Of a DNA stretch of 47,055 nucleotides, positions 149 to 14,079 are shown in pieces. The stretch is from a virus (taxonomy: Duplodnaviria > Caudoviricetes): positions 1 through 47,055 of the IMG/VR virus record IMGVR_UViG_3300025000_000164; one strand, 5' to 3'. Each line of letters begins with the position of its first letter. The first letter of the stretch is position 1. A program made the translations under genes and the position numbers. Below the pieces are notes generated by a model that did no database searches, was not told the origin of the DNA, and saw only the letters and a list, made by a program, of their open reading frames with translations.

Positions 149-3094
149 GCGCTTCTCTCGAAAGTAAACAGGGCTCTTACATCCTACGGAGAAAGGAAGG
201 CTGCTGTAAGACAGGCGCGGGGAGATAGATATGCTAAAGCAACTTGGAGACAGCAATTTAGTGGACTGGATAAAGCAGGAAAAGACGAGGTTATGGACTT
301 GGCTGCTGCGGAGAATATCCCGCCCGAGATTGGTACTGCTATTGCTTCTATAAAGAGTGAGGCTAGGATTGTAAGAAGTGATCCGAAAAGAGAGGCTGCT
401 AGAAATGCTGCTATTCTACGAAGTCAGGAGGTTAGTGGTTCACTGGCTAAGAGAATGGCGGCTGCGGTGCAAGCCAAGGCAGACAAAGTAGTAGAAGGGT
501 TCTCCGAGTCTGAGATTGGTACTTTACTTTCTGGTGGGGCAGAATCTACTCTTTCCAAAAGGACTGCTAAGCTAGTAGAGCCTAAAGCAGGTGATAAGAT
601 TTCACAGGCATACCTCCGGAAACTGACTATCCAGAGAAACGAAAGAAATGCTATTAAGAGAATGACCCTTGAAGACCCCGCCGATCTTAATCCTGTAGAA
701 GAGTTTCTAGGAGATAGACTCAATGATTCGCAGGTATCATCTCTACTTAAGAAGGGCCTCCTTACAATCCCTATTATGTCTCTTGGGCTGCTTGGTGGAG
801 CTGAGGATTCCGAGGCATCTGTTGCAGGTACTGTGTCTGTGTTGGGAGCGGAGGCAGTTAAGAAAGCAACAGGGAAGACTGGAGCAGAGCTTATCTCACA
901 GCTTCTGAAGACTGACTTTGTTGCTGTGAAGGGAAATGTTTTAGGTAAAGTATCTAAGTGGATGGATGCCCCCGCTATGGCTCCAGCTGTAGATGCTATC
1001 AAGAGTATGAAGACTATCATGCCAGAAGTGTTCCGGAGTAAGGTAATGACTCCCGGCGCTGTGGCAGATATCTTCTACAAAGCAGATAAGAATCCTATGG
1101 TGGAACTTGCTGCCAGGATGACAGCGGTGCATAATAATTCTAAGATGCACGTGCAGGCTGTGAAGGAGATCTTGAGTACTGTTCCATCTTACAAGAATGC
1201 CTCCAGAGAAATAAGAAAAGAAACGAAGCATTTGACTGAGAAGTACGATGTACCTCTGGCACAGGCAGGGTATCATACTGGAATGCAGAAGGAGCTGTGG
1301 AAAAGGATTCGGCTTGCTAAAGATCCTGTTGTGATAGCTGATCTGAAGAAACAGCTTGTTGAGAATAAAGAGGCTCTTGAGAAAGCGAATCAGGCTCTGG
1401 TTCCGTATGAGCAGGATTGGACCAAGACCATGCAGGAAGTTTCTGCGAAACACTCTAGTGCTAGGATGAGTCTGGCTCTTGAGGATACAGCAGACTTTAA
1501 GCATTATCCTTGGCTTAAATCCTTAATGTCTCCTGACGAGTTGTCTGCTGTTTCAATGCTTAAGGATCTGAATAAGCAAACCGAGGCTAGGATTCTTGAA
1601 GCAGGTGGTAAGGTTATAAAAGAAAGACCCTTCGCGCATCACGCAGTACATCCCGACTCAAATAGGAGAGCGATACAGAATTCATTTGCTGGTATATCTA
1701 ATAACACGAATGATGCACTGAATTTATCCAGACTTAACTCTAGGGCCATTGGTTCCAGAATGGCAATGCCTGACATTGAGTACATGTTTGAGAAATATGT
1801 TCCTGATGTAGAGCGCAGGATTCAAACAATGCAATTCTGGAAGAAGGGTCAAGTCGGAGGCTGGGCGCAGCATAAGAAGGATCTTAGAGCTAATAACATG
1901 ATGACTCCGGAGCTGGATAAGTTCTGGAAGGATGTAAATAAATCACTGGGATCTCAGCCGGGGACTGATGCAGCACAATGGGCGAAGAGGTATTATTCTC
2001 TCGAGGTTGCATGGAGACTCTTTATGAGTCCGTCTGTTGGTTTCAAACATATTATGAAACAGACAGGTAATATGGCAATCTTCCCACTAGATGTATGGGC
2101 TAAAGGAATTGCTAAAACTCCCCGGATTCTAGCAGAAACAGGAATGATGAATCTGAAGGAAAGGTTCCCGAGTACGTTTAAGAACTTCAACTTTACTCCT
2201 TCTGAGAATACGCAGCTTGTAACTGCTATGCGTAATCAGGGGAAGTATAACTCTGCTATAGCAGAACTTGATATGTTTGATGCTCCTATCAATGCTTTTG
2301 ATAAGGTGATGGACAAGATTAATACGTTTGGTTCTGCTATTGTTGGAACAGTAGAGATGTTCGATAGAGCTGCTACTCTGATGATGGGTGCTGAGATGGC
2401 GGCGAAGAAAGGAATGACCCCGAGTCAAGCAGTACATGCAATGTATGATTCTGTTATTCGTGCGAACTTTCTTTCTGGTGTGCATAATCCTAGCTGGGTA
2501 AGAGATCCTCATGCCAGGGCTTTCTTTATGTTTCAGGGGACGCCGTATAAGCTCCTGGAACAACGTCTTATTACTATGACTAAAGCAGGGAAGGATATTG
2601 GGAAGGCTGCTGGAATAACCTGGGATGAGATTAAGAATCTGAAAGGATACCTTAAGGAGGGAGAGTATAAGATTAAACACGGTCTGATAATGGATGCACT
2701 GACACAGACTAAGGATATCTATGGGCAGTCTGTTACAAAACAATTTGCTGTTAACATGCTAACAATGGGTGGAATTATCTGGGCTGGAGATAAGTTCTTT
2801 GATGCTGATATCCAAGACCAGGTGTTCCATATTCCCTTTGTGAAAATAGGCGGGGAGTCTCCCGGTGTTATGTTGAATCCTGTACTTAGTGCGGGGTATA
2901 AGGCCTGGACTAAAAGGCATGAAGAAGATAGGGATATGTTGTTTACAGAGTTTGTGAATAACTGGGCCGGGACCGGGGGTTTGGTTCCTAGTTCCATAAC
3001 TAAAGCAATGCGTTTGTCTGAAGATGATATTCCAGAAATATATAAGGAAAGTAAACTTCGGTATTTGTTTGGGGTGCAGGCCTCGAAAGAGTAA
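2..3094 (+). CDS. Large internal virion / DNA ejection protein, C-terminal part
   Basis: The frame is open from base 2, so the ATG at 32 is internal. Helical Ala/Lys-rich composition with hydrophobic segments. Function inferred from size and synteny. Confidence 0.75.
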   Translation, partial: DQNPGAKNAVMELGEFIGADNLSAITRYAATFPGRKAPASILGAQAENSALLSKVNRALTSYGERKAAVRQARGDRYAKATWRQQFSGLDKAGKDEVMDLAAAENIPPEIGTAIASIKSEARIVRSDPKREAARNAAILRSQEVSGSLAKRMAAAVQAKADKVVEGFSESEIGTLLSGGAESTLSKRTAKLVEPKAGDKISQAYLRKLTIQRNERNAIKRMTLEDPADLNPVEEFLGDRLNDSQVSSLLKKGLLTIPIMSLGLLGGAEDSEASVAGTVSVLGAEAVKKATGKTGAELISQLLKTDFVAVKGNVLGKVSKWMDAPAMAPAVDAIKSMKTIMPEVFRSKVMTPGAVADIFYKADKNPMVELAARMTAVHNNSKMHVQAVKEILSTVPSYKNASREIRKETKHLTEKYDVPLAQAGYHTGMQKELWKRIRLAKDPVVIADLKKQLVENKEALEKANQALVPYEQDWTKTMQEVSAKHSSARMSLALEDTADFKHYPWLKSLMSPDELSAVSMLKDLNKQTEARILEAGGKVIKERPFAHHAVHPDSNRRAIQNSFAGISNNTNDALNLSRLNSRAIGSRMAMPDIEYMFEKYVPDVERRIQTMQFWKKGQVGGWAQHKKDLRANNMMTPELDKFWKDVNKSLGSQPGTDAAQWAKRYYSLEVAWRLFMSPSVGFKHIMKQTGNMAIFPLDVWAKGIAKTPRILAETGMMNLKERFPSTFKNFNFTPSENTQLVTAMRNQGKYNSAIAELDMFDAPINAFDKVMDKINTFGSAIVGTVEMFDRAATLMMGAEMAAKKGMTPSQAVHAMYDSVIRANFLSGVHNPSWVRDPHARAFFMFQGTPYKLLEQRLITMTKAGKDIGKAAGITWDEIKNLKGYLKEGEYKIKHGLIMDALTQTKDIYGQSVTKQFAVNMLTMGGIIWAGDKFFDADIQDQVFHIPFVKIGGESPGVMLNPVLSAGYKAWTKRHEEDRDMLFTEFVNNWAGTGGLVPSSITKAMRLSEDDIPEIYKESKLRYLFGVQASKE

Positions 3095-3138: not shown

Positions 3139-3402
3139 ATGAGTGGTGTGCGAGGAAAGTTGATTAAGGATGCAGGGAATGTTTCTATACAGGTGTTTTC
3201 TCCATATAAAATTATAGCTGCGGAAGCCGGAGTAGCTGTTACATTTGCTGATGCTGATATTGCATTCAGAGTTCCTGATATAAATACTCTTACGATCTCT
3301 GGTTCTACTCCTACTACTACTTTAGTGGCTGGGAGTATTACTGGAATTATTAATGGACTAACTTATACTTTCACTACTGCGACTTCTGTTGAGGTAATGT
3401 AA
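3139..3402 (+). CDS. Small hypothetical virion-associated protein
   Basis: GAGGT RBS; TAATG coupling to the next gene; beta-rich. Confidence 0.75.
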   Translation: MSGVRGKLIKDAGNVSIQVFSPYKIIAAEAGVAVTFADADIAFRVPDINTLTISGSTPTTTLVAGSITGIINGLTYTFTTATSVEVM

Positions 3403-5153
3403 TGCAGCTAATGAATTTTGGACTTGGAATAGGGTCTAATGGGGGTAATACTCCCTGGATAACCGACATCCACAACGGCATCCTCAACCCAGCCTTCACC
3501 TACACCGGCGGCCAGGCCATAGTCCCCGACGCGAACGGTATCCTCCGTCGCACACCAGCGGGGTACCCTGCCGTGGAAGGTGGGCGGTGGGCTGCTACGG
3601 TGGCTGAAGGTGCGCTGCTGGTTGGATTAGAACTGGTTGCCAATGGGACGTTTGAAAGTGGTGTGACTGGCTGGACCCCAACAGGCTGCACTCTGGCATC
3701 AGTTGCTGGTGGAGAATCGGGCAATTGCCTACAGCTAACACGTGTATCTGGAGCTATACAGACGGCTGCATGTGTGATCAATACTGTTATAGGGAAAACA
3801 TACGAGGTTGATGTATTTGCTAAGGCTGGCAGTTCTGGAAATGAGCCATTCTATCTCCAAGTAACAGCTGCCGGATTAAATGTTACAATTCATCCATCAG
3901 CTACCGCCGCTTGGGTGATGCATACTCTTACATTTGTAGCGACGAATACAACCGCTACGATAACGATATACAAAGATTCAGGTACTGCTGGGACAATGCT
4001 GTTTGATACAGTATCAAGCAATGAGATAATCAAACAATGGCATCCACCAACGCTCGGCACAATCCGTAGTATTTCTACACGCAAAGGTATCCGCCAGATT
4101 CAGATTTCGGATGATTTCCTGGGTATGAAAAACGAGCCTGTGATGGTCAACAAGGTCACGGCGAAGAAGAGCAATCCGACTGACACAGCAGGAGTAACAG
4201 GTGCAGGCGGGGCAGTGCCTACCAGAGTAGATGACATGGTTGCTCTGACGGCTGCGGGTAGACATGATATCTGCAACACGGGATTTGTCTATAATCTCAG
4301 CATTCCACAGAATGGTGCGATCAGCATGGCTGGGGCAGTAGCCAACTTGAACAAGCACTCCGTCTCTTTGGATATGCGCCTCGTCTCAGGCACAGGGGTA
4401 CAGCTTGGGCTGACCGGGCAGACCTCGGATGTGACGCTGACGGCTGCATACAGTAGGCAGAAGAAGGAGAGCCTTACTCCGCTGAATGCTGCGGATGTTA
4501 TCACGATCACGAACCTGAACGCAGATACAGCGGTTGTCAGGTGCATCTTACCCGGACTGGAAGAGAATGTTTTTTGTACGAGCAGGATAGCACCGACCGC
4601 AGACACGGCGGCCAGCCAACTCCGCGCAGCATCCGTGAACAGCGCTCCTACCGATAAGGTTTTCCCGTCCACCGGCCAGGATTTTGCCATATTCATTGAG
4701 CAAGTGGCGACAAGTGCAGGGCAGACGGCAACCTTGTTTTCAACGCGAGTTGACGCGGACAACCTATTCAGCATCTCCACGACTGCAACGGCAATTGGTG
4801 CAAATCTAAGGAAGATAGCAACCGACAACGCGTCCAGCGCATCCTATACTCACGCTGCGGATGAGAAATTCCAGGCCATTGTTATCAAATCAGCGATGGG
4901 CATTTCGGTCAAGGCTAGGGCTTATTCAGGCGGGATCTGGGGCGCATGGTCGGCGTGGGGAGACAACGAAACGGCAGGAGCGAAAGCAGCCTCTCCAATT
5001 GGTGCTACCTATCAGATTGGCGCATTGAACAGCCTCAATCAATTCTGTGGGAATTACCCCGAGACTGTGGTTGTCGTCATGCCTCCAAAATCCACACTCG
5101 CTGAATACAAGACATGGGTTGAAGTTGAACTTGAACGCAGGGGGTTACTTTGA
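3402..5153 (+). CDS. Receptor-binding / tail fibre protein with a carbohydrate-binding (CBM4/9-like) module and a ConA/LamG-like C-terminal region
   Basis: ELVANGTFESGVTGW...MLFDTVS is a CBM-like signature; Thr/Ala/Gly-rich beta protein located after the virion genes. Confidence 0.65.
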   Translation: MQLMNFGLGIGSNGGNTPWITDIHNGILNPAFTYTGGQAIVPDANGILRRTPAGYPAVEGGRWAATVAEGALLVGLELVANGTFESGVTGWTPTGCTLASVAGGESGNCLQLTRVSGAIQTAACVINTVIGKTYEVDVFAKAGSSGNEPFYLQVTAAGLNVTIHPSATAAWVMHTLTFVATNTTATITIYKDSGTAGTMLFDTVSSNEIIKQWHPPTLGTIRSISTRKGIRQIQISDDFLGMKNEPVMVNKVTAKKSNPTDTAGVTGAGGAVPTRVDDMVALTAAGRHDICNTGFVYNLSIPQNGAISMAGAVANLNKHSVSLDMRLVSGTGVQLGLTGQTSDVTLTAAYSRQKKESLTPLNAADVITITNLNADTAVVRCILPGLEENVFCTSRIAPTADTAASQLRAASVNSAPTDKVFPSTGQDFAIFIEQVATSAGQTATLFSTRVDADNLFSISTTATAIGANLRKIATDNASSASYTHAADEKFQAIVIKSAMGISVKARAYSGGIWGAWSAWGDNETAGAKAASPIGATYQIGALNSLNQFCGNYPETVVVVMPPKSTLAEYKTWVEVELERRGLL

Positions 5154-5154
5154 C
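5139..5154 (+). promoter_or_regulatory. RF2/prfB-type +1 programmed ribosomal frameshift signal
   Basis: In-frame AGG GGG TTA CTT TGA C: internal SD, 3-nt spacer, CUU, UGA and C. The +1 frame stays open for 254 codons. Confidence 0.7.
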
Positions 5155-5916
5155 GTAGAGGATTCGATTTTACGAGTTGGGTTTGTCACTGATCTTCATT
5201 ATGGAGGGTATAATTTTGTTGATCTCACATCACCAGAACGAGCCACACTTGCTGTTGAAAAACTGTCGGGAAGAAATCTTGATTGCGTGGTCTATGTGGG
5301 CGATAACGTAAGCGATAATTCATCTCTGCTGCCAGCGATGAAAGAGATAAGTGATGCTCACAATTGCCCTGTTAGATATGTGCATGGTGGGCACGATATT
5401 TGCGATAACGCTACATGGAATACCTTATTCGGATATGACAAAAACTATAGTTTTGTATTGGGGAGTTATGCTTTTGTGGTGCTTGATAACTGGACCGATA
5501 CCAGCGGAGGTTTTACGTACTGGGAGGAATCCCCTGTATCTGATGTATGGCTAACTACAGAACTGGATAAATATTCCGGTAGTGATGGAATATTTATCGT
5601 TACGCATTATATAAGTGAGGCTATATCTGGTTCCAATTTAGATATAATTGTAGCAAATCCAAAAATATTAGCGGTACTGTACGGGCATGGGCACAATTTC
5701 ATCAACACTGCAATTGTAGGCAAACCGTTTATCCAATGTGGTCATTGGAGTGTATGCCCTGGTGGTATTTGGGACAATGCTATTCCGTATAATTTTGGGT
5801 TACTAGAGATAAATATTAATGGTACGGATATTAATATAAAACAAGTTGTTCCAGCGTATGAGTATCCAGGGTTTAGCCAACCTGAAGAGGTTAGGCAAAC
5901 ATTTGTGATCCGATAA
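5152..5916 (+). CDS. Calcineurin-like metallophosphoesterase (probably the C-terminal domain of a frameshift fusion with 3402..5153)
   Basis: Motifs TDLH, VGDN, GGHD (variant of GNHD), THY and GHGH. No ATG/GTG with an RBS lies just upstream of the domain. Confidence 0.85.
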   Translation, partial: DVEDSILRVGFVTDLHYGGYNFVDLTSPERATLAVEKLSGRNLDCVVYVGDNVSDNSSLLPAMKEISDAHNCPVRYVHGGHDICDNATWNTLFGYDKNYSFVLGSYAFVVLDNWTDTSGGFTYWEESPVSDVWLTTELDKYSGSDGIFIVTHYISEAISGSNLDIIVANPKILAVLYGHGHNFINTAIVGKPFIQCGHWSVCPGGIWDNAIPYNFGLLEININGTDINIKQVVPAYEYPGFSQPEEVRQTFVIR

Positions 5917-5917
5917 C

Positions 5918-5977
5918 ATACTGGCAGAGTATCAGGCGTGGATTGAACAAGAGTTAACACTGAGGGGGCTGATATGA
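5918..5977 (+). repeat. Diverged duplicate of the last 20 codons of the receptor-binding gene (5094-5153)
   Basis: ILAEYQAWIEQELTLRGLI* versus TLAEYKTWVEVELERRGLL*; 11/19 amino acids identical. Confidence 0.85.
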
Positions 5978-6375
5978 GTTACATTGACAACATGCGGACT
6001 GTGATCCTCCGAGTGAAGACAACCCGCGAAGCTCTCAAGACCTCTGAAGTGGATGCGAGAAAGACCGTCTATTTTGGTACTGTCCTCCGCAGGGATGCAG
6101 TACGTGATGAGGATATGTTTCAGCACAACTGCACCCGCATTCAGGAGGGCTATATCCGTGTGCCATTCACAAGGGAGTATCTCAAGACCTTGACGGACCG
6201 ACTGACTGCCAGAGTCTCGGAGAACTTTGAGGTGGTGCGGGTGGAGAATGATGGGCAGACCGAGTTTGTCCTGCCGAGCGGAGAATTGCTTGGCTATATT
6301 GTCGGATACCCTGTAAGTGACGCACCAGAGACTAGAGTTGTAGATGAGAAAACTACGGAGGTAATATCGAGATGA
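5974..6375 (+). CDS. Hypothetical protein (possible tail fibre accessory/chaperone)
   Basis: GAGGGGG RBS; ATGA overlap with the next gene. Confidence 0.75.
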   Translation: MSYIDNMRTVILRVKTTREALKTSEVDARKTVYFGTVLRRDAVRDEDMFQHNCTRIQEGYIRVPFTREYLKTLTDRLTARVSENFEVVRVENDGQTEFVLPSGELLGYIVGYPVSDAPETRVVDEKTTEVISR

Positions 6376-6758
6376 AAACTCTTGTAACAAAAGGATGGCT
6401 ATGGATTCTGGCCGCACTGCTCACGATATTTTTTTGGGCGGATATCTCTAGCGCTGGCACTATCACGCGGCAAATGTCTTTCACCTGGACATACACTGTA
6501 GCCGAGGAAGCGGATATCACGGGCTTCAAAATCTACCAGTATGCTCTCCCGCTTACGCCTTCGGCAGCAACTGTGGTAATTGACAATATTCCAAAGACGA
6601 CACGATTCGCCACAGCCACACTGTCCTACGACTCAGCAAAATCACAACGCCTCTTCATTCGAGCTGTTGATGAATCAGACCCTGCCAACCCTGAATACTC
6701 CGGCGATAGCAACATCATCAAACTGATCGCTGCGCCTAGCGGATTCAAACGTAATTAA
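6372..6758 (+). CDS. Exported fibronectin type III-like protein
   Basis: N-terminal signal peptide; FTW...ITGFKIYQ...FIRAVD...SGDSN is an Fn3-like pattern. Confidence 0.65.
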   Translation: MKTLVTKGWLWILAALLTIFFWADISSAGTITRQMSFTWTYTVAEEADITGFKIYQYALPLTPSAATVVIDNIPKTTRFATATLSYDSAKSQRLFIRAVDESDPANPEYSGDSNIIKLIAAPSGFKRN

Positions 6759-6776: not shown

Positions 6777-7211
6777 ATGAAATTTGCTTCTGCTTGTGTA
6801 AGTATTTTGTGTGTGGGTTTACTCTCTGGATGTTTTGGAGCAACAAAGAAAACGAATATTACTTTTGACCTGAGACCAACAGCGAGTGATCATAGCACAG
6901 TTGTAAATATTATGGTACAGAAAGCTGATGGAGCGAAGCTGGATACTGAAACAGATCAGGTAGCGAATCAGGATTTTAGTGGCTTGCTTGAAACAGTAGT
7001 AGATAAGGTTAAAGAGGGTTTGCCTGATATAGGATCTCTTATTAAAACCAAAACTACTTCCACTGTAGAAACTACAGCCCCAGTTGCCACAGTTCCTGTT
7101 ACGACAACTACAACTACTACGCCAGCAGTATCTAAGCTTCCTACAGAATCTACTGGAACATTCCCTCCGAGCCTTGACACACCTGTAGGAGATGTGAAGG
7201 AGATAGACTGA
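6777..7211 (+). CDS. Putative lipoprotein with Thr/Pro-rich tail
   Basis: GGAGG RBS; hydrophobic N-terminus with lipobox LSGC. Confidence 0.75.
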   Translation: MKFASACVSILCVGLLSGCFGATKKTNITFDLRPTASDHSTVVNIMVQKADGAKLDTETDQVANQDFSGLLETVVDKVKEGLPDIGSLIKTKTTSTVETTAPVATVPVTTTTTTTPAVSKLPTESTGTFPPSLDTPVGDVKEID

Positions 7212-9248: not shown

Positions 9249-9602
9249 ATGCTTATGAAAAGTGAATTCTTTTCCAGGCGAGAATTTGCCTGTAAGTGTG
9301 GATGCGGGTTTGATACAGTGGATGCGGAACTCTTGGAAGTACTAGAGGATTTGAGGAGGTACTTCTGTACCAGAGTTTACATCATAAGCGGGTGCAGGTG
9401 TCTTAAGAGAAACCTCCAGGTAAATGGTTCTCCTGGATCTAAGCACATGGAAGGTAGGGCGGCGGATGTAAGGCTGGACCATATTGATCCTATTATTGTG
9501 AGATTGTATCTGGAAGAGGAGTATGGAGATACGTATGGGATAGGAACCTATACGTTGTTTACACATCTGGATACACGGACGGGAGTGAAAGTGAGATGGT
9601 GA
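9249..9602 (+). CDS. Peptidase M15 family endolysin
   Basis: FSRREFACKCGCG, SGCRC, SKHMEGRAAD and FTHLDTR (Zn ligands H, D, H). Confidence 0.9.
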   Translation: MLMKSEFFSRREFACKCGCGFDTVDAELLEVLEDLRRYFCTRVYIISGCRCLKRNLQVNGSPGSKHMEGRAADVRLDHIDPIIVRLYLEEEYGDTYGIGTYTLFTHLDTRTGVKVRW

Positions 9603-9608
9603 AGAAGT

Positions 9609-9649
9609 GAAACCCTATACTAGGAGTATTTAGTATAGGGTTTCTTTTT
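9609..9649. terminator. Intrinsic terminator between the convergent arms
   Basis: 14-bp stem GAAACCCTATACTA (9609-9622) / TAGTATAGGGTTTC (9631-9644) followed by a T-run. Confidence 0.85.
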
Positions 9650-10076
9650 AGATTTCCTTAAGAAACACATGATCATCTATTGTTGCAACATACTCCATTG
9701 AATCTGCCCAGTACGGCTTTCCTCCTTTTGTTCCAGACGGACTGTAGTAGTGTGTAGCACCATTAAGTCTCTTCCCCGCCTGCCACTCGTTGACTCCGTT
9801 AATGCAGTTGTTATATACTGAAGCAAGGGTTACAAGTTCCGTTATCCAGTTTGCCGGTACGGAGAAACCTTTTCTTTTAGTTACTAATCCGTCTATGCCA
9901 TCATTCCAGCAAGAGAATTGCTTCCGAGAGAAGATGATATTTGCAAGTGGCCAATTCCGTTTCTTGGCTCTGTTAAGGATTACTTTTACAACTGCCTTCT
10001 GCCCCGCGGGAGGTTCTCCCCTGGCCTCGAGATAGACAGTTAGAACAACCCACATGAAGCCCTCTACGGAGGTCAT
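9648..10076 (-). CDS. Cell wall hydrolase, SleB / Hydrolase_2 family
   Basis: TVYLEARGE, AVVKVILNR, QFSCWN, GATHYY and DHVF motifs. Confidence 0.9.
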   Translation of the reverse strand: MTSVEGFMWVVLTVYLEARGEPPAGQKAVVKVILNRAKKRNWPLANIIFSRKQFSCWNDGIDGLVTKRKGFSVPANWITELVTLASVYNNCINGVNEWQAGKRLNGATHYYSPSGTKGGKPYWADSMEYVATIDDHVFLKEI

Positions 10077-10573
10077 TCTCCTAGCCCATTCTTGAGGGCA
10101 TCTAGTAAGTCTTCTTCCAGATCGTCGCGTGAATTATTCACATTAGGTGCTGCTTCAAGCCGCGCATGGTAGAGTCGAAGTAGGATGTTGAAGGCTGCCT
10201 GTGCTGCATGGTAGCATCCTGTTTCTGTATCCTTTGCAAGAGGATCAAGTTGGCATTGTTCCAGGTGTCTCATAGTTCCATCCCAGAACCTGGAGTCTGA
10301 ATCCTCAAATGGTTTGAGGCAGTTGAACTTTTTATACTTCTTCACTCCCGCCGTGAATGTATCTGCAAGTGGACCAAGGACACAGAGCGGCATGGCATGG
10401 TATTTCTGTTTTCCAGAATCATGCTTGAGGCCTTCTTGTTCTCGTACTCTCGGCGCGAATTGTTTATAGTACTCTACTTCTTTTGCAAGATTATTTACAA
10501 AATTCAGTATATCATGATCACTACGGAGGTTGTATTTTTTTACTATCATTCGATTCTGTTCTTGTAAATTCAT
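10073..10573 (-). CDS. dATP/dGTP diphosphohydrolase-like protein (DUF5664)
   Basis: GLKHDSGK..., GVKKY..., MRHL and DTETGCYHAAQAAFN pattern. Confidence 0.8.
   Translation of the reverse strand: MNLQEQNRMIVKKYNLRSDHDILNFVNNLAKEVEYYKQFAPRVREQEGLKHDSGKQKYHAMPLCVLGPLADTFTAGVKKYKKFNCLKPFEDSDSRFWDGTMRHLEQCQLDPLAKDTETGCYHAAQAAFNILLRLYHARLEAAPNVNNSRDDLEEDLLDALKNGLGE
10129..10141. promoter_or_regulatory. Dispersed palindromic site, copy 2 (GTGAATTATTCAC)
   Basis: Exact copy; inside the DUF5664 3' end, about 50 bp before the SleB start. Confidence 0.7.
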
Positions 10574-10588
10574 TTCATCTCTCCTTTT

Positions 10589-11788
10589 CTAATCTGAAAT
10601 ATACTGATAAACAGGTACGTTATCAGCTCCAAGAATCTTCTTAACCCTACCAGTTGATAGGATTGTCTGGATTACATTTGTGAACTTGATAGAATCAAGG
10701 TCCCTCCACACAGCACGCATTAACTTAGATTCTGTTATGGTTCCATGAGATCTTATTATGGTCATAACAGTATCTACCTCCCCGGTAATAGCAGACTTCC
10801 CTACACTTCTAAAAGCATTTCCCATTCCCTCCTCAGAATGTGTTATTTTAGCGATAGCCTTCTCCAAATGATGCACCTGAAGTTCAAGACACCCGGACTC
10901 AGATGCAGCAAATATCATAGCCAGTTTAAGTATCATCATTGGTTTTCTACTATACCATCCATTAAAGGATGGGTCGTTACAGATTCGACCTATGTCCAGG
11001 TCTTCATACTTGTTATACCATTCTACCCAGAAGCATGTGGCTTCTTTAGAGAAGATATAATCCCCCGCTATCTGGGCTATCAGAAACATATCGTGTTTGA
11101 GTTTCTCCTTTAACTCAATTGTCTCTGGAGTCTCGAAGGGTATCGGGACTTTCTTCTCCTTCTTGTCCGCCCAGACAAAGATGATTCGTGAAGTCAGGCC
11201 GCCGCCAATAGCTTGTGAGGGTAATGCAGTTGCTAAAGACTCTGGTGTGGTAGCACCAAGTAGATTCAAGTACACAGATGGTATCGTAGTATTGCCAGAG
11301 TTTTTGGTTCGGTATTTCCATGGTGCCTCGCTGCAATCGAAGAGGTCAGTTAGGAGGACAAGCATCTTTGCGTTCTCAGTTTTCTGCCCTAGAAAGGATT
11401 CGAACTCAGTTGAGATAATAGACAAGGAAGAGTGCTTGAACATCCTCCCATCCGGCATTGGAGAATCTATTGCTGCAAGCTCTAGGTCCTGAAGCAGTGC
11501 CTCCCGCGTTATAGCATCTGCACTTATCTTTATATCTTCTACTGCTTTTATAATAGGAGAACCGTAGGATATAGCTACAGACTTTCTAGCCTTCCCCGGC
11601 TCAGCTACCAGTACAATATACGTGTTAGGATAGACTCTTAGCCTTCCTAGGTGAAGTTTTACTTTCTTACGTAGAGCACTTGAGATCAGGGAAATACCTA
11701 CCCAATCATGAAAGACCCTCGCGCTTTCTGTGTTCTCTGTGTATTGTCGATACGCAGTTAAGAAGTCGGGGAGAAGTCTTTGGCTCAT
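10589..11788 (-). CDS. DUF3987-like P-loop protein, putative replicative helicase
   Basis: VYPNTYIVLVAEPGKARKS Walker A, LLGATTP, GGLTSR; next to the polymerase. Confidence 0.75.
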   Translation of the reverse strand: MSQRLLPDFLTAYRQYTENTESARVFHDWVGISLISSALRKKVKLHLGRLRVYPNTYIVLVAEPGKARKSVAISYGSPIIKAVEDIKISADAITREALLQDLELAAIDSPMPDGRMFKHSSLSIISTEFESFLGQKTENAKMLVLLTDLFDCSEAPWKYRTKNSGNTTIPSVYLNLLGATTPESLATALPSQAIGGGLTSRIIFVWADKKEKKVPIPFETPETIELKEKLKHDMFLIAQIAGDYIFSKEATCFWVEWYNKYEDLDIGRICNDPSFNGWYSRKPMMILKLAMIFAASESGCLELQVHHLEKAIAKITHSEEGMGNAFRSVGKSAITGEVDTVMTIIRSHGTITESKLMRAVWRDLDSIKFTNVIQTILSTGRVKKILGADNVPVYQYISD

Positions 11789-14079
11789 ATCTTTAACCCT
11801 TCCATTTCTTTCCAGTTTTCACCTTCTTTAAAGTCGACTCCTATGTAGAGGTCAATGTGAGGGAGTTTGATAGGACGGTGCATGGACTCGAGCATTTTTT
11901 GGGCTATGGGGACTGGGTCAAGGTTCTGATCATACCAGACATATATGGCATCGTGGAGCTGCATCCAGAGCCCAAACCCTTTCTCAGTCTTGTTCTTCTC
12001 ATAGAAATCTGTCATGCTTATATTAAGCAGATCTCCTATTGTACTCTGTGGTACGAAAGCATAGGCGCTTCTGAAAAGCTGGTCTCCCCACCTATCCATG
12101 AAGATACGTTTCCTACCCAAAGGTGTTACAAGTATCCTGTCTTCGGATAGTTTGGCTCTGAGTTTCTCATGCCAGAGGGCAAGTTGCGGGGTAGCATTTT
12201 GGAACCTTGTGAGGTACTCCTTGGCTACCTTAAGAGTTACTTTAAGTTTACTCTGAAGTACTGCAGGCCCCGCGCTATAGTTGGTAGCGTGCCTAATAGT
12301 CTTTCCTATTGTTCTAAGCTCAGGTGTTACCTCATCATAAGGAACATTGAACATTATGGAAGCAGTTAACTTGTGAATATCTGTTCCGTCGTCGAAGGCC
12401 TTTATTACTTTGTGATCCTGGATAAGGTGTGAAACTACATGAGCTTCTGCGCCTATATAGTCAGCCTGTATAAGGCGACAGTTAGCAGGACCTCTATACA
12501 TCTTCCGTACTCTACGATCCACATTCTGCAGATTACCAGAACCATAGTCTAGGATGATGGATTTGGAGCTGCTCCATCTACCAGTCTCAGTGCCTGAGAT
12601 GTTATAGGAAGTATGGGCCTTGTTCTCTGGAGAGAGCTCGATATTAATGGATTGTAGAATCTTATTGTATTTCCTATACTCCAGCAGGAGTTTCAGGACA
12701 GGATCCTGTGTTGCTATGTATAGCTTCTCAAGTGCCTCGGCGTCAGTTGTTACAACCCTAGGATCATCAGCACTCTTTCTCCTTTTGTACTGCACAGGCA
12801 ACCCCATGTCTACGTAGAGAAGTTCCTGCATTTGCTTTGGAGAACTGAAGTTTATTTCCTTTTTTAATATGGTGCTAAGGCCGGTTTCAATGGCTGTCAT
12901 TTTCTCGAAGAACTCTTTGTGGAGAGCTTCCTTCTGTGCAGGATCAACCTCTACTCCCCGGAGCTGCATGTAGCCCGCGAGTTCTATCTGAGCCATTTCC
13001 CTTTCGAAGGTTACTTTGTAGTTCTCGTCTGCTGCTATTAGCGGGGACATCTTGTCGTATAACGCCCGTGTATTTGCAGCGTCCTGAGCATTGTACTCTC
13101 CGTGCTCGTACTGATTACCCGATGTGTGTTTCCAAGCAGGGACGTTGAGGAGTATACTACATAAGTAACCCAGATCCTTTGGAAATTCGGGCCATAACAC
13201 GTGGGCACTGAGAAGGGTATCGAAGTGAATATTTTCACACCAGACTCCTTGATTATGCCAGAGGTTCATTACGTCATATGAAGCATTGTGGAATACAAGT
13301 TTTATTCCTGAGCTACAGAGCTTTGCAATAGATGCCCAGATTTCTACCTCGTCCATCTCGGGGAAACACTGGACTCTGTTCTCTATGAACCTGACTGACA
13401 TCCCGAAGTTTTCATTATGGGATATTCCGAACCAGCTTATGTGGGCTCCGGGTGTGAGGTGTTCGAGGTCAATGGCGACTACGAATTCTTTCCTGTTTTC
13501 GTAGAGAAAATCAAGGTACTGAAGTATGTCCTGTTTCCCTGGAGCAACCTTGAGTTCAGCTTTGTATTCTCTAAACTCTGGATTCAAAGACTCATGTCTT
13601 ACCTTTCTGAAGTCCATTACAGACTGGTAGAACAGGCTCCAGTCGTATGTTACAGCCTTGGGATGGTAGGTTACTAGGACTTTCTTCCCCGGCACAAGAG
13701 AAGACTGGACTATGGTGCCTCGGAGAGCCTTGAGGCCTGACAAGCCAGTGAGAACTCTTAATGGTATGGCTCCAAGGGCGACTATGATATTAGGGTTTAG
13801 GGTTTCTATCTCATCCTTAAGTCTAGCTATCTGTAAAGCAAAGTCGGGGGTTGGATTCTCCTGCTTCTTATCAAGAAAGAATGTTTTTATTCTCCTGCAG
13901 GAAGTATTTGTTATGATACATTCTCCATAGAATATACCAGCCTGGGTTAGGATCTTCCTAAGAGTTGTGCCATCGCTGCCTACGAAAGGCATACCGCACT
14001 TCTCTTCTACCTCTCCAGGTGCTTCACCCACTATCATTATAGTAGCCCTGGTCGAGGGAATTATAGTTTTTACGTCCAT
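11785..14079 (-). CDS. polA: Family A DNA polymerase with N-terminal uracil-DNA glycosylase (family 4-like) and 3'-5' exonuclease domains
   Basis: UDG: GEAPG..E...G.PFVG and YHP. Exo: DLE, HNASYD, YNAQD. Pol: TGRWSS, NLQN, ADY...E, RxxxKxxxHxxxY, HD. Confidence 0.95.
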   Translation of the reverse strand: MDVKTIIPSTRATIMIVGEAPGEVEEKCGMPFVGSDGTTLRKILTQAGIFYGECIITNTSCRRIKTFFLDKKQENPTPDFALQIARLKDEIETLNPNIIVALGAIPLRVLTGLSGLKALRGTIVQSSLVPGKKVLVTYHPKAVTYDWSLFYQSVMDFRKVRHESLNPEFREYKAELKVAPGKQDILQYLDFLYENRKEFVVAIDLEHLTPGAHISWFGISHNENFGMSVRFIENRVQCFPEMDEVEIWASIAKLCSSGIKLVFHNASYDVMNLWHNQGVWCENIHFDTLLSAHVLWPEFPKDLGYLCSILLNVPAWKHTSGNQYEHGEYNAQDAANTRALYDKMSPLIAADENYKVTFEREMAQIELAGYMQLRGVEVDPAQKEALHKEFFEKMTAIETGLSTILKKEINFSSPKQMQELLYVDMGLPVQYKRRKSADDPRVVTTDAEALEKLYIATQDPVLKLLLEYRKYNKILQSINIELSPENKAHTSYNISGTETGRWSSSKSIILDYGSGNLQNVDRRVRKMYRGPANCRLIQADYIGAEAHVVSHLIQDHKVIKAFDDGTDIHKLTASIMFNVPYDEVTPELRTIGKTIRHATNYSAGPAVLQSKLKVTLKVAKEYLTRFQNATPQLALWHEKLRAKLSEDRILVTPLGRKRIFMDRWGDQLFRSAYAFVPQSTIGDLLNISMTDFYEKNKTEKGFGLWMQLHDAIYVWYDQNLDPVPIAQKMLESMHRPIKLPHIDLYIGVDFKEGENWKEMEGLKI

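Follow-up and report, generated by a model that had tools for sequence, protein, structure and literature searches.

The window analysed here is a 47-kb phage contig (47,055 nucleotides; IMG/VR record IMGVR_UViG_3300025000_000164), and all features of the locus described first lie on its plus strand. An open reading frame (ORF) at 3402-5153 encodes, in frame 0, a protein of 583 amino acids that terminates with RRGLL and is a likely virion-borne lectin built of several beta-sandwiches, with a CBM_4_9 domain at residues 77-190, a LamG/ConA-like C-terminal part and a terminal helix at residues 566-579. The end of this gene resembles the frameshift signal of prfB, the gene for release factor 2 (RF2), and the frame that a +1 shift at this site would enter encodes a calcineurin-like metallophosphoesterase (MPE; 5152-5916). 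Behind the MPE stand a stranded copy of the original 3' end of the lectin gene (5918-5977) and a gene for a protein of 133 amino acids (5974-6375) that in relatives directly follows the lectin gene.

The prfB-type cassette is complete, and every element is in the correct register. AGGGGG (5139-5144), an internal Shine-Dalgarno (SD)-like element at the position of an inherited ribosome-binding site (RBS) and the predicted stimulator of frameshifting, lies 3 nt 5' of the shift codon; it is followed by the spacer TTA, which is the E-site codon (5145-5147), the shift codon CTT (5148-5150), the in-frame stop TGA (5151-5153) and a C (5154), as in the prfB consensus (PMC12421855). The absence of a competing SD sequence 5' of the stimulator is a further feature of the cassette (PMC5009743, legend to Fig. 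12), and by eye neither GGAG nor GAGG is present at 5119-5138. A sequence-only reading of this DNA had claimed that AGG GGG TTA CTT TGA C closes the 583-codon gene and that the +1 frame is an intact MPE of 254 codons, and both claims were borne out. The strict motif AGGRGGNNNCTTTGAC occurs once in the window and was matched in 1 of 100 shuffles, a figure that exaggerates its rarity, the coupled junction of the gene family having already supplied AGGGGG, the spacing and TGA; a match to the looser AGGNGGNNNCTTTGAC, one mismatch being tolerated, was present in 25 of 100. RNA structure 3' of the site was not significant (z 0.37 and 0.15; -1.52 across the site), and promoter-like sites were found at chance level (7 against 6.7 expected).

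The open +1 frame extends from 5029 to 5916; its 254 codons, counted from 5152, begin with DVEDSILRVGFVTDLH, so that the predicted fusion would have 583+254 = 837 amino acids. The ORF matches Pfam Metallophos above the cut-off (E 1.8e-6), and Atlas clusters of the same family were matched at 0.96. Calcineurin-like MPEs carry the canonical motifs DxH, GD, GNH[DE], H and GHxH. In the +1 frame these read DLH, GD, GGHD, H and GHGH: four are canonical, and motif III has GGHD instead of GNHD. All invariant catalytic columns are kept, and since the standalone MPEs P0040 and P0043 share GGHD, this variant is not a sign of decay. At E 0.001 or better the MPE has 178 protein relatives, of which the best 150 were examined. 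After the MPE itself, the five best matches are the standalone P0040 and P0043 (first and fourth) and P0041, P0042 and P0044, in which the MPE is an in-frame C-terminal domain, behind phrog_6609 in the first two and behind CWB2 repeats in the third. Among the 22 relatives scanned for domains, others carry ChW/Ig or GDPD domains, and P0048 begins like a tail fibre. An MPE that follows a fibre-like, cell-wall-anchor or beta-sandwich domain in the same frame is thus common among close homologs, which makes a fused product plausible. The N-terminal domain of P0042, which may be LamG-like, is assigned by PHROGs to phrog_6609, of unknown function; it shows no detectable homology to the lectin family (hhalign probability 0.3%). 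At the DNA level no close MPE relatives were found in viral or genome contigs, and only two distant phage records turned up. The low GC content at third codon positions of the MPE (0.33 versus 0.59) is not diagnostic, as the genes at 6777 and 7213 are equally low.

Comparison with related loci explains where the elements of the cassette come from. From 35 lectin homologs and one from a further search, we left out 13 in which the match extends over no more than roughly one quarter to one third of the protein, P0024 with a different end, and P0003, which is discussed below. Among the remaining 21, 17 end in RGLI and one in EGLI, two continue past RGLI, and one, P0016, the only other homolog with RGLL, continues in frame with D. 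The in-frame tails of P0013, P0022 and P0016 behind RGLI or RGLL are short and acidic, and the family C-terminus thus accepts extensions. Of 38 related loci, one is the window, and the gene ends were listed for 36 others. The eight other loci that end in RGLI represent four distinct end sequences; each of them reads AGG GGG CTG ATA TGA, and in them the next gene, of about 120-134 amino acids, follows immediately with its ATG overlapping the lectin stop. This layout is found intact behind the MPE: the stranded end LAEYQAWIEQELTLRGLI, closed by its stop codon, carries AGGGGG at 5963-5968 as RBS, and the ATG at 5974 overlaps TGA at 5975-5977. The lectin gene of one relative runs directly into window position 5920 in a contig comparison. 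Over 60 bases, the stranded copy is identical to the end of locus L001 at 56 positions, the end now in use (5094-5153) at 36; for the other four loci compared the values are 50-51 and 40-43. The end in use is a recoded copy of the last 20 codons of the lectin gene, divergence is apparent from about 5064 onwards, and the right edge of the donor piece is no more than about 3 nt away from the MPE stop. Since the stranded end matches the family and the used end diverges, a module consisting of the recoded end and the MPE must have entered the gene; judged by these alignments, the MPE and the recoded end are an insertion, and the old end was kept as the RBS of the next gene. A weak MPE match in two of the related loci, L003 and L020 (E 0.39), belongs to a separate upstream gene and was rejected as a counterpart of the junction MPE.

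The SD sequence, its spacing and TGA are therefore inherited, because the family end already carries them, and the caveat of the sequence-only reading that AGGGGG might have originated as the RBS of a coupled downstream gene proved right, both from the layout of the family and from the original copy at 5963-5968. Indeed, where an ATG or GTG overlaps TGA, an SD sequence placed five bases upstream of that start suffices for the prfB geometry, and SD sites precede many gene ends (Atkins et al., PMC5009743). Compared with the family end, the new end has TTA for CTG, CTT for ATA, C for G and, in addition, a +1 frame that is coding. If the SD and TGA are taken as inherited, CTT, C and the +1 frame would occur together with a chance of 0.001-0.012, a value that is based on the codon use of the MPE and varies with the chance assumed for Leu. 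Both states are present in the locus, the cassette (5139-5154) and, 800 bp away, the RBS from which it apparently derives (5963-5977); the case is single and unconserved, but its ancestral state has survived beside it.

In the probable source sample, the junction is genuine DNA and not a slip of the assembler. Four sequencing runs, labelled groundwater metagenome and coming from two samples of one study, contain the stretch; no RNA run was listed among them, which does not count as evidence. A Logan contig with a depth of 10.6 covers 4505-6500 and has 0 differences and 0 gaps relative to the window; it may derive from the source sample and therefore counts as a second assembly rather than as a second sample or isolate. 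This second assembly thus shows no indel at 5140-5160, where the sequence-only reading had advised mapping reads. The second sample is without cover at 5031-5234, which in itself is not evidence, and its contig is unchanged up to 5030. The lectin homolog P0003, a protein with 99% identity, suggests a variant or a misassembly: its end reads as though about 5028-5203 were missing. It may be a misassembly because the contig of the second sample continues unchanged to 5030, and P0003 was judged from the protein alone. The implied deletion of about 176 bases would take away the cassette together with the beginning of the MPE, and the gap in the cover of the second sample lies at nearly the same place.

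How might the MPE be translated? In 17 of the 22 ATG starts tested in this phage the SD site has -5.9 kcal or stronger, and the phage genes thus use SD sites. Near the junction, the MPE frame has no ATG, its GTG at 5047 lacks an SD site, and the values for TTG 5119, 5125 and 5131 are -0.7, -3.1 and -3.1 kcal. The statement that the MPE has no ATG or GTG with an RBS of its own therefore stands for the surroundings of the junction, and what it leaves is an ATT at 5167 that does have an SD site. We consider it likely, from the sequence, that a lineage-specific prfB-type +1 frameshift yields two forms, the lectin of 583 and a lectin-MPE fusion of 837 amino acids. In a donor lineage, an MPE domain would have come to follow the stop in the +1 frame, and the ATA that bore the start of the next gene would have become the slippery CTT; the module of recoded end and MPE would then have recombined into the phage, leaving the old end as the RBS of the next gene. 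Ribosomes would pause at UGA C with the anti-SD sequence paired, and tRNA-Leu would re-pair from CUU to UUU, so that a share of the molecules becomes the lectin-MPE beside the normal form. It is tempting to speculate that a fraction of the lectin copies of the virion, probably head-spike fibres, might in this way display an enzyme that acts on phosphate esters of the host surface. By analogy with prfB, the ratio of short to long forms would track the RF2 level of the host, as a property of the cassette. The elements of the signal are nearly invariant in prfB genes, and a reporter into which the cassette had been moved along with 60 flanking bases showed 52.7% shifting in B. subtilis and 6.6% in M. 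smegmatis (PMC12421855, section 12). Moreover, the TTA spacer in place of the native CTG counts in favour of shifting, because weaker E-site pairing raises +1 shifting (PMC2790909).

Several observations weigh against this frameshift. (i) The SD, the spacing and TGA can be explained without it. (ii) No RGLL cassette end is conserved: [RE]GLI is the terminus in 18 of the 21 homologs, and CTT TGA C or a following MPE is found in 0 of the 36 other related loci. The check proposed earlier, a conserved motif with an open +1 frame in related phages, thus gave no support, and none of these loci has the MPE behind the gene; since no relative keeps the arrangement, conservation cannot support the frameshift. 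(iii) An N-terminal part of the lectin family occurs in 0 of the best 150 of the 178 MPE relatives; neither these, nor the lectin homologs, nor a search for longer proteins, which is weak evidence, held the in-frame fusion of the two families that had been suggested as a further check. (iv) In a survey of other viruses in IMG/VR, described below, the motif was not enriched by ORF length (8 of 142 test and 8 of 136 control loci). (v) The remaining points are the two alternative starts at 5167 and 5150 and the shortened end of P0003, and each of them speaks at the same time for one of two other explanations.

According to the first of these, the MPE is, or was until a change from ATG to ATT, a separate gene that starts at 5167, the likeness to prfB would be a by-product of an inherited RBS and stop, and any slippage would be incidental. 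The ATT has an SD sequence of its own, AGAGGA (5157-5169 from the SD to the ATT), and at -5.8 kcal this possible weak start is comparable to weak real genes of the phage (5 of the 22 are weaker). SD sequences just before stops are, moreover, common in coupled genes (PMC5009743). The ATT stands in the register of the Met of the standalone P0040 and P0043, with which the MPE shares GGHD: ATT-L-R-V-G-F-V-T-D-L-H corresponds to M-I-R-F-x-x-x-T-D-x-H. However, ATT start codons are rare, the calculated chance shows how seldom CTT, C and the +1 frame would arise together by accident, and the similarity to the fused P0042 begins at query residue 2, upstream of the ATT. We regard a separate gene as unlikely.

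The second explanation is a recent indel of one base that broke either a TTG-coupled MPE gene or an in-frame lectin-MPE fusion, in which case the MPE would be a young pseudogene or passenger and the frameshift unselected. The TTG at 5150, at the ancestral start position of the coupled gene, has a strong SD (-10.1), yet TTG ACG TAG (5150-5158) opens only a third-frame ORF of two codons (Met-Thr-stop), and in locus L072 the same motif is read as a TTG-coupled junction. P0016 continues RGLL-D in frame, P0003 suggests that the region can be lost, and the insertion is limited to this lineage. On the other hand, the sole lesion would have to hit the first few bases of an otherwise intact frame of 254 codons, a broken fusion would need the stop to have re-formed precisely at the ancestral stop position of the family, and the present sequence is still a full cassette that is expected to shift. 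A broken gene is, in our judgement, also improbable. A sequencing or assembly error, i.e. one extra T in what is truly an in-frame fusion gene for 837 amino acids, is very improbable: a TTT run does sit at the junction, and the site lacks confirmation from an independent sample, but the separately assembled contig crosses it without a difference or gap, and the stop falls exactly on the stop position of the family.

The survey consisted of four motif scans of IMG/VR, two with the test motif (T-CTT and C-CTT) and two with controls (CAT and CTG). Matches numbered 119 (T-CTT), 70 (CAT), 73 (C-CTT) and 99 (CTG). Removing redundancy and requiring 300 bases to either side left 84, 56, 58 and 80, and 8, 0, 0 and 8 of these were junctions with at least 95 open codons both before the stop and in the +1 frame. 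An apparent enrichment over the CAT control (7/85 versus 0/59) was removed by the second pair (0/58 test versus 8/80 control). With the CTG control, the GTG contained in the pattern is in frame with a long open ORF in 19 of 29 cases with a long upstream ORF, and by eye the +1 frames of the controls resemble GC-rich non-coding frames. A seemingly conserved cassette in phage DNA methyltransferases (L041, L064, L082, L103, L110; L049, L125, L149) was rejected: the motif codes for GG-x-F-D in the frame of the gene itself, which is whole in L041 and L082 and apparently broken elsewhere in the others. Four of the eight test junctions are such genes. Four other loci, from very large phage proteins, read AGG GGG TCN CTT TGA C between a long frame-0 ORF and a long ORF in the +1 frame, all with RGSL: L039 (=L145, L230), L104 (=L150, L229), L130/L146/L155 (L231, L232) and L120 (L228), the last with an ATG seven codons upstream. 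Zeta-toxin and weak RelA/SpoT matches were seen upstream of these junctions. L039, L104 and L130/L155, each present in two or three contigs, look like true junctions and are leads of the same lineage-specific kind. The L104 junction itself proved not to be conserved: the coding +1 module is in frame in 44 of 49 other non-redundant relatives, five are cut by the end of the locus, and none has the cassette. L231 contains an internal duplicate of its GTLTSRGSL end, like the duplicated gene end of the window. We propose, as a possibility that we ourselves find doubtful, that phages repeatedly convert the RBS of coupled genes into an RF2-type stimulator at module junctions, so that only some copies of virion or injected proteins bear an enzyme domain, at a share that reflects the host RF2 level, with L039, L104 and L130/L155 as independent cases.

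Three further matches of the survey deserve mention. On a contig of 441 kb, the size of a jumbo phage, L071 (314-1037, minus strand) is a release-factor-like gene with PCRF and RF-1 domains and a very short leader that ends in a prfB-type cassette. In L106 (about 1001-1016, minus strand), the reading of what we take to be a RusA-like protein is broken exactly at the motif and continued in the +1 frame for 37 codons, by a cassette or a single-base insertion. In L080 (about 1001-1016), a long, presumably amidase-like ORF ends in the motif, and a protein-like +1 extension of 35 codons follows.

The lectin had been called a receptor-binding protein. The CBM and LamG lectin folds support this name only in part, and no match in PHROG or among phage records ties the protein to the tail or to a tail fibre or spike. 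The nearest clusters of its C-terminal part are viral LamG/ConA proteins, and the fold model is all-beta with a C-terminal helix (mean pLDDT 64) and matches CBM16 and CBM22 folds. The CBM_4_9 domain occupies a region that is swapped or absent in relatives. In same-habitat relatives this region (window 3630-4030, alignment A1) is hypervariable or absent between conserved flanks and thus resembles a swappable module. Upstream, a gene for 87 amino acids (3139-3402), coupled to the lectin gene by TAATG, may encode the base protein of a head spike; its L002 homolog lies two genes after a capsid-like gene. Judged by eye from the translations, the lectin cassette of L002 follows a gene that resembles the major capsid gene, and in L001, a phage with siphovirus-like tail genes, the lectin gene and its downstream neighbour stand just before connector-like genes. 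These arrangements resemble the RcGTA head spike, which consists of the pentameric base Rcc01079 and the single fibre Rcc01080 and whose type is marked by an upstream jellyroll base protein and an N-terminal (L/I)G repeat of the fibre: a small gene precedes a lectin-like gene, the cassette is near capsid or head-connector genes, and the N-terminus MQLMNFGLGIG alternates hydrophobic residues with Gly, FGLGIG being reminiscent of the anchor IALGLGLGL of the RcGTA fibre (PMC7296036). In contrast to RcGTA, there is no sequence match to the PDB, and several lectin homologs have other N-termini. As a lead, based on the N-terminus and the preceding gene, the lectin looks more like a head-spike fibre than like a tail receptor-binding protein.

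Elsewhere, the window carries a P22-like portal, an SU10-type adaptor, DNA polymerase A and lysis genes. The DNA polymerase A gene (11788-14079, minus strand) is fused to an N-terminal domain of the uracil-DNA-glycosylase family, and a gene for a dATP/dGTP diphosphohydrolase lies at 10073-10573. Where the late module meets the replication module, genes for two cell-wall enzymes face each other, peptidase M15 (9249-9602, plus strand) and Hydrolase_2 (9648-10076, minus strand).

If the cassette shifts, this is a second use of the prfB signal, with both products working. The locus shows how a few mutations can turn an ordinary overlap of SD-coupled genes into an SD-stimulated frameshift signal, and with ancestor and product side by side this origin is directly testable. 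It is also a warning that optional enzyme domains of phage adhesion proteins escape gene callers. The earlier statement that no precedent in a phage virion gene is known agrees with our literature search, which covered mostly titles and the beginnings of abstracts and few subscription papers and found no phage structural gene with a prfB-type cassette; passages of PMC7824862 and PMC3711429 contain no precedent. According to the authors of PRFect, every +1 shift at CUU-stop in RECODE is that of a prfB gene (PMC10885494).

The closest known system is the autoregulatory frameshift of prfB itself, with which the locus shares AGGGGG, the 3-nt spacer, CTT TGA C and a long +1 ORF. In prfB the signal comes after about 25 codons, whereas here it ends a functional gene of 583 codons, both products would be useful, and the cassette is not conserved and apparently derived from an RBS; as the +1 product is a Metallophos protein and not a release factor, there is no autoregulation and no feedback loop. 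The second comparison is with C-terminal extensions of phage structural proteins, such as those of tsh in the Listeria phages PSA, A118 and A500 (+1 at CCC_UGA), the Ig-like domains of T3 and A2, and T7 gene 10: there, too, one gene gives a short and a long form, an accessory domain landed out of frame and is expressed by frameshifting, and a +1 shift occurs at a stop (PMC5009743). Here, however, CUU with an SD stimulator takes the place of CCC, the added domain is an enzyme instead of Ig-like, and the carrier is a lectin, probably a fibre, and not a major capsid or tail protein. Finally, phosphoesterases displayed on surfaces or virions in fusion with tail-fibre-like, CWB2, ChW or GDPD parts belong to the same MPE subfamily and often have the enzyme at the C-terminus; those fusions are in frame, whereas the MPE of the window would be joined to its lectin by a +1 frameshift.

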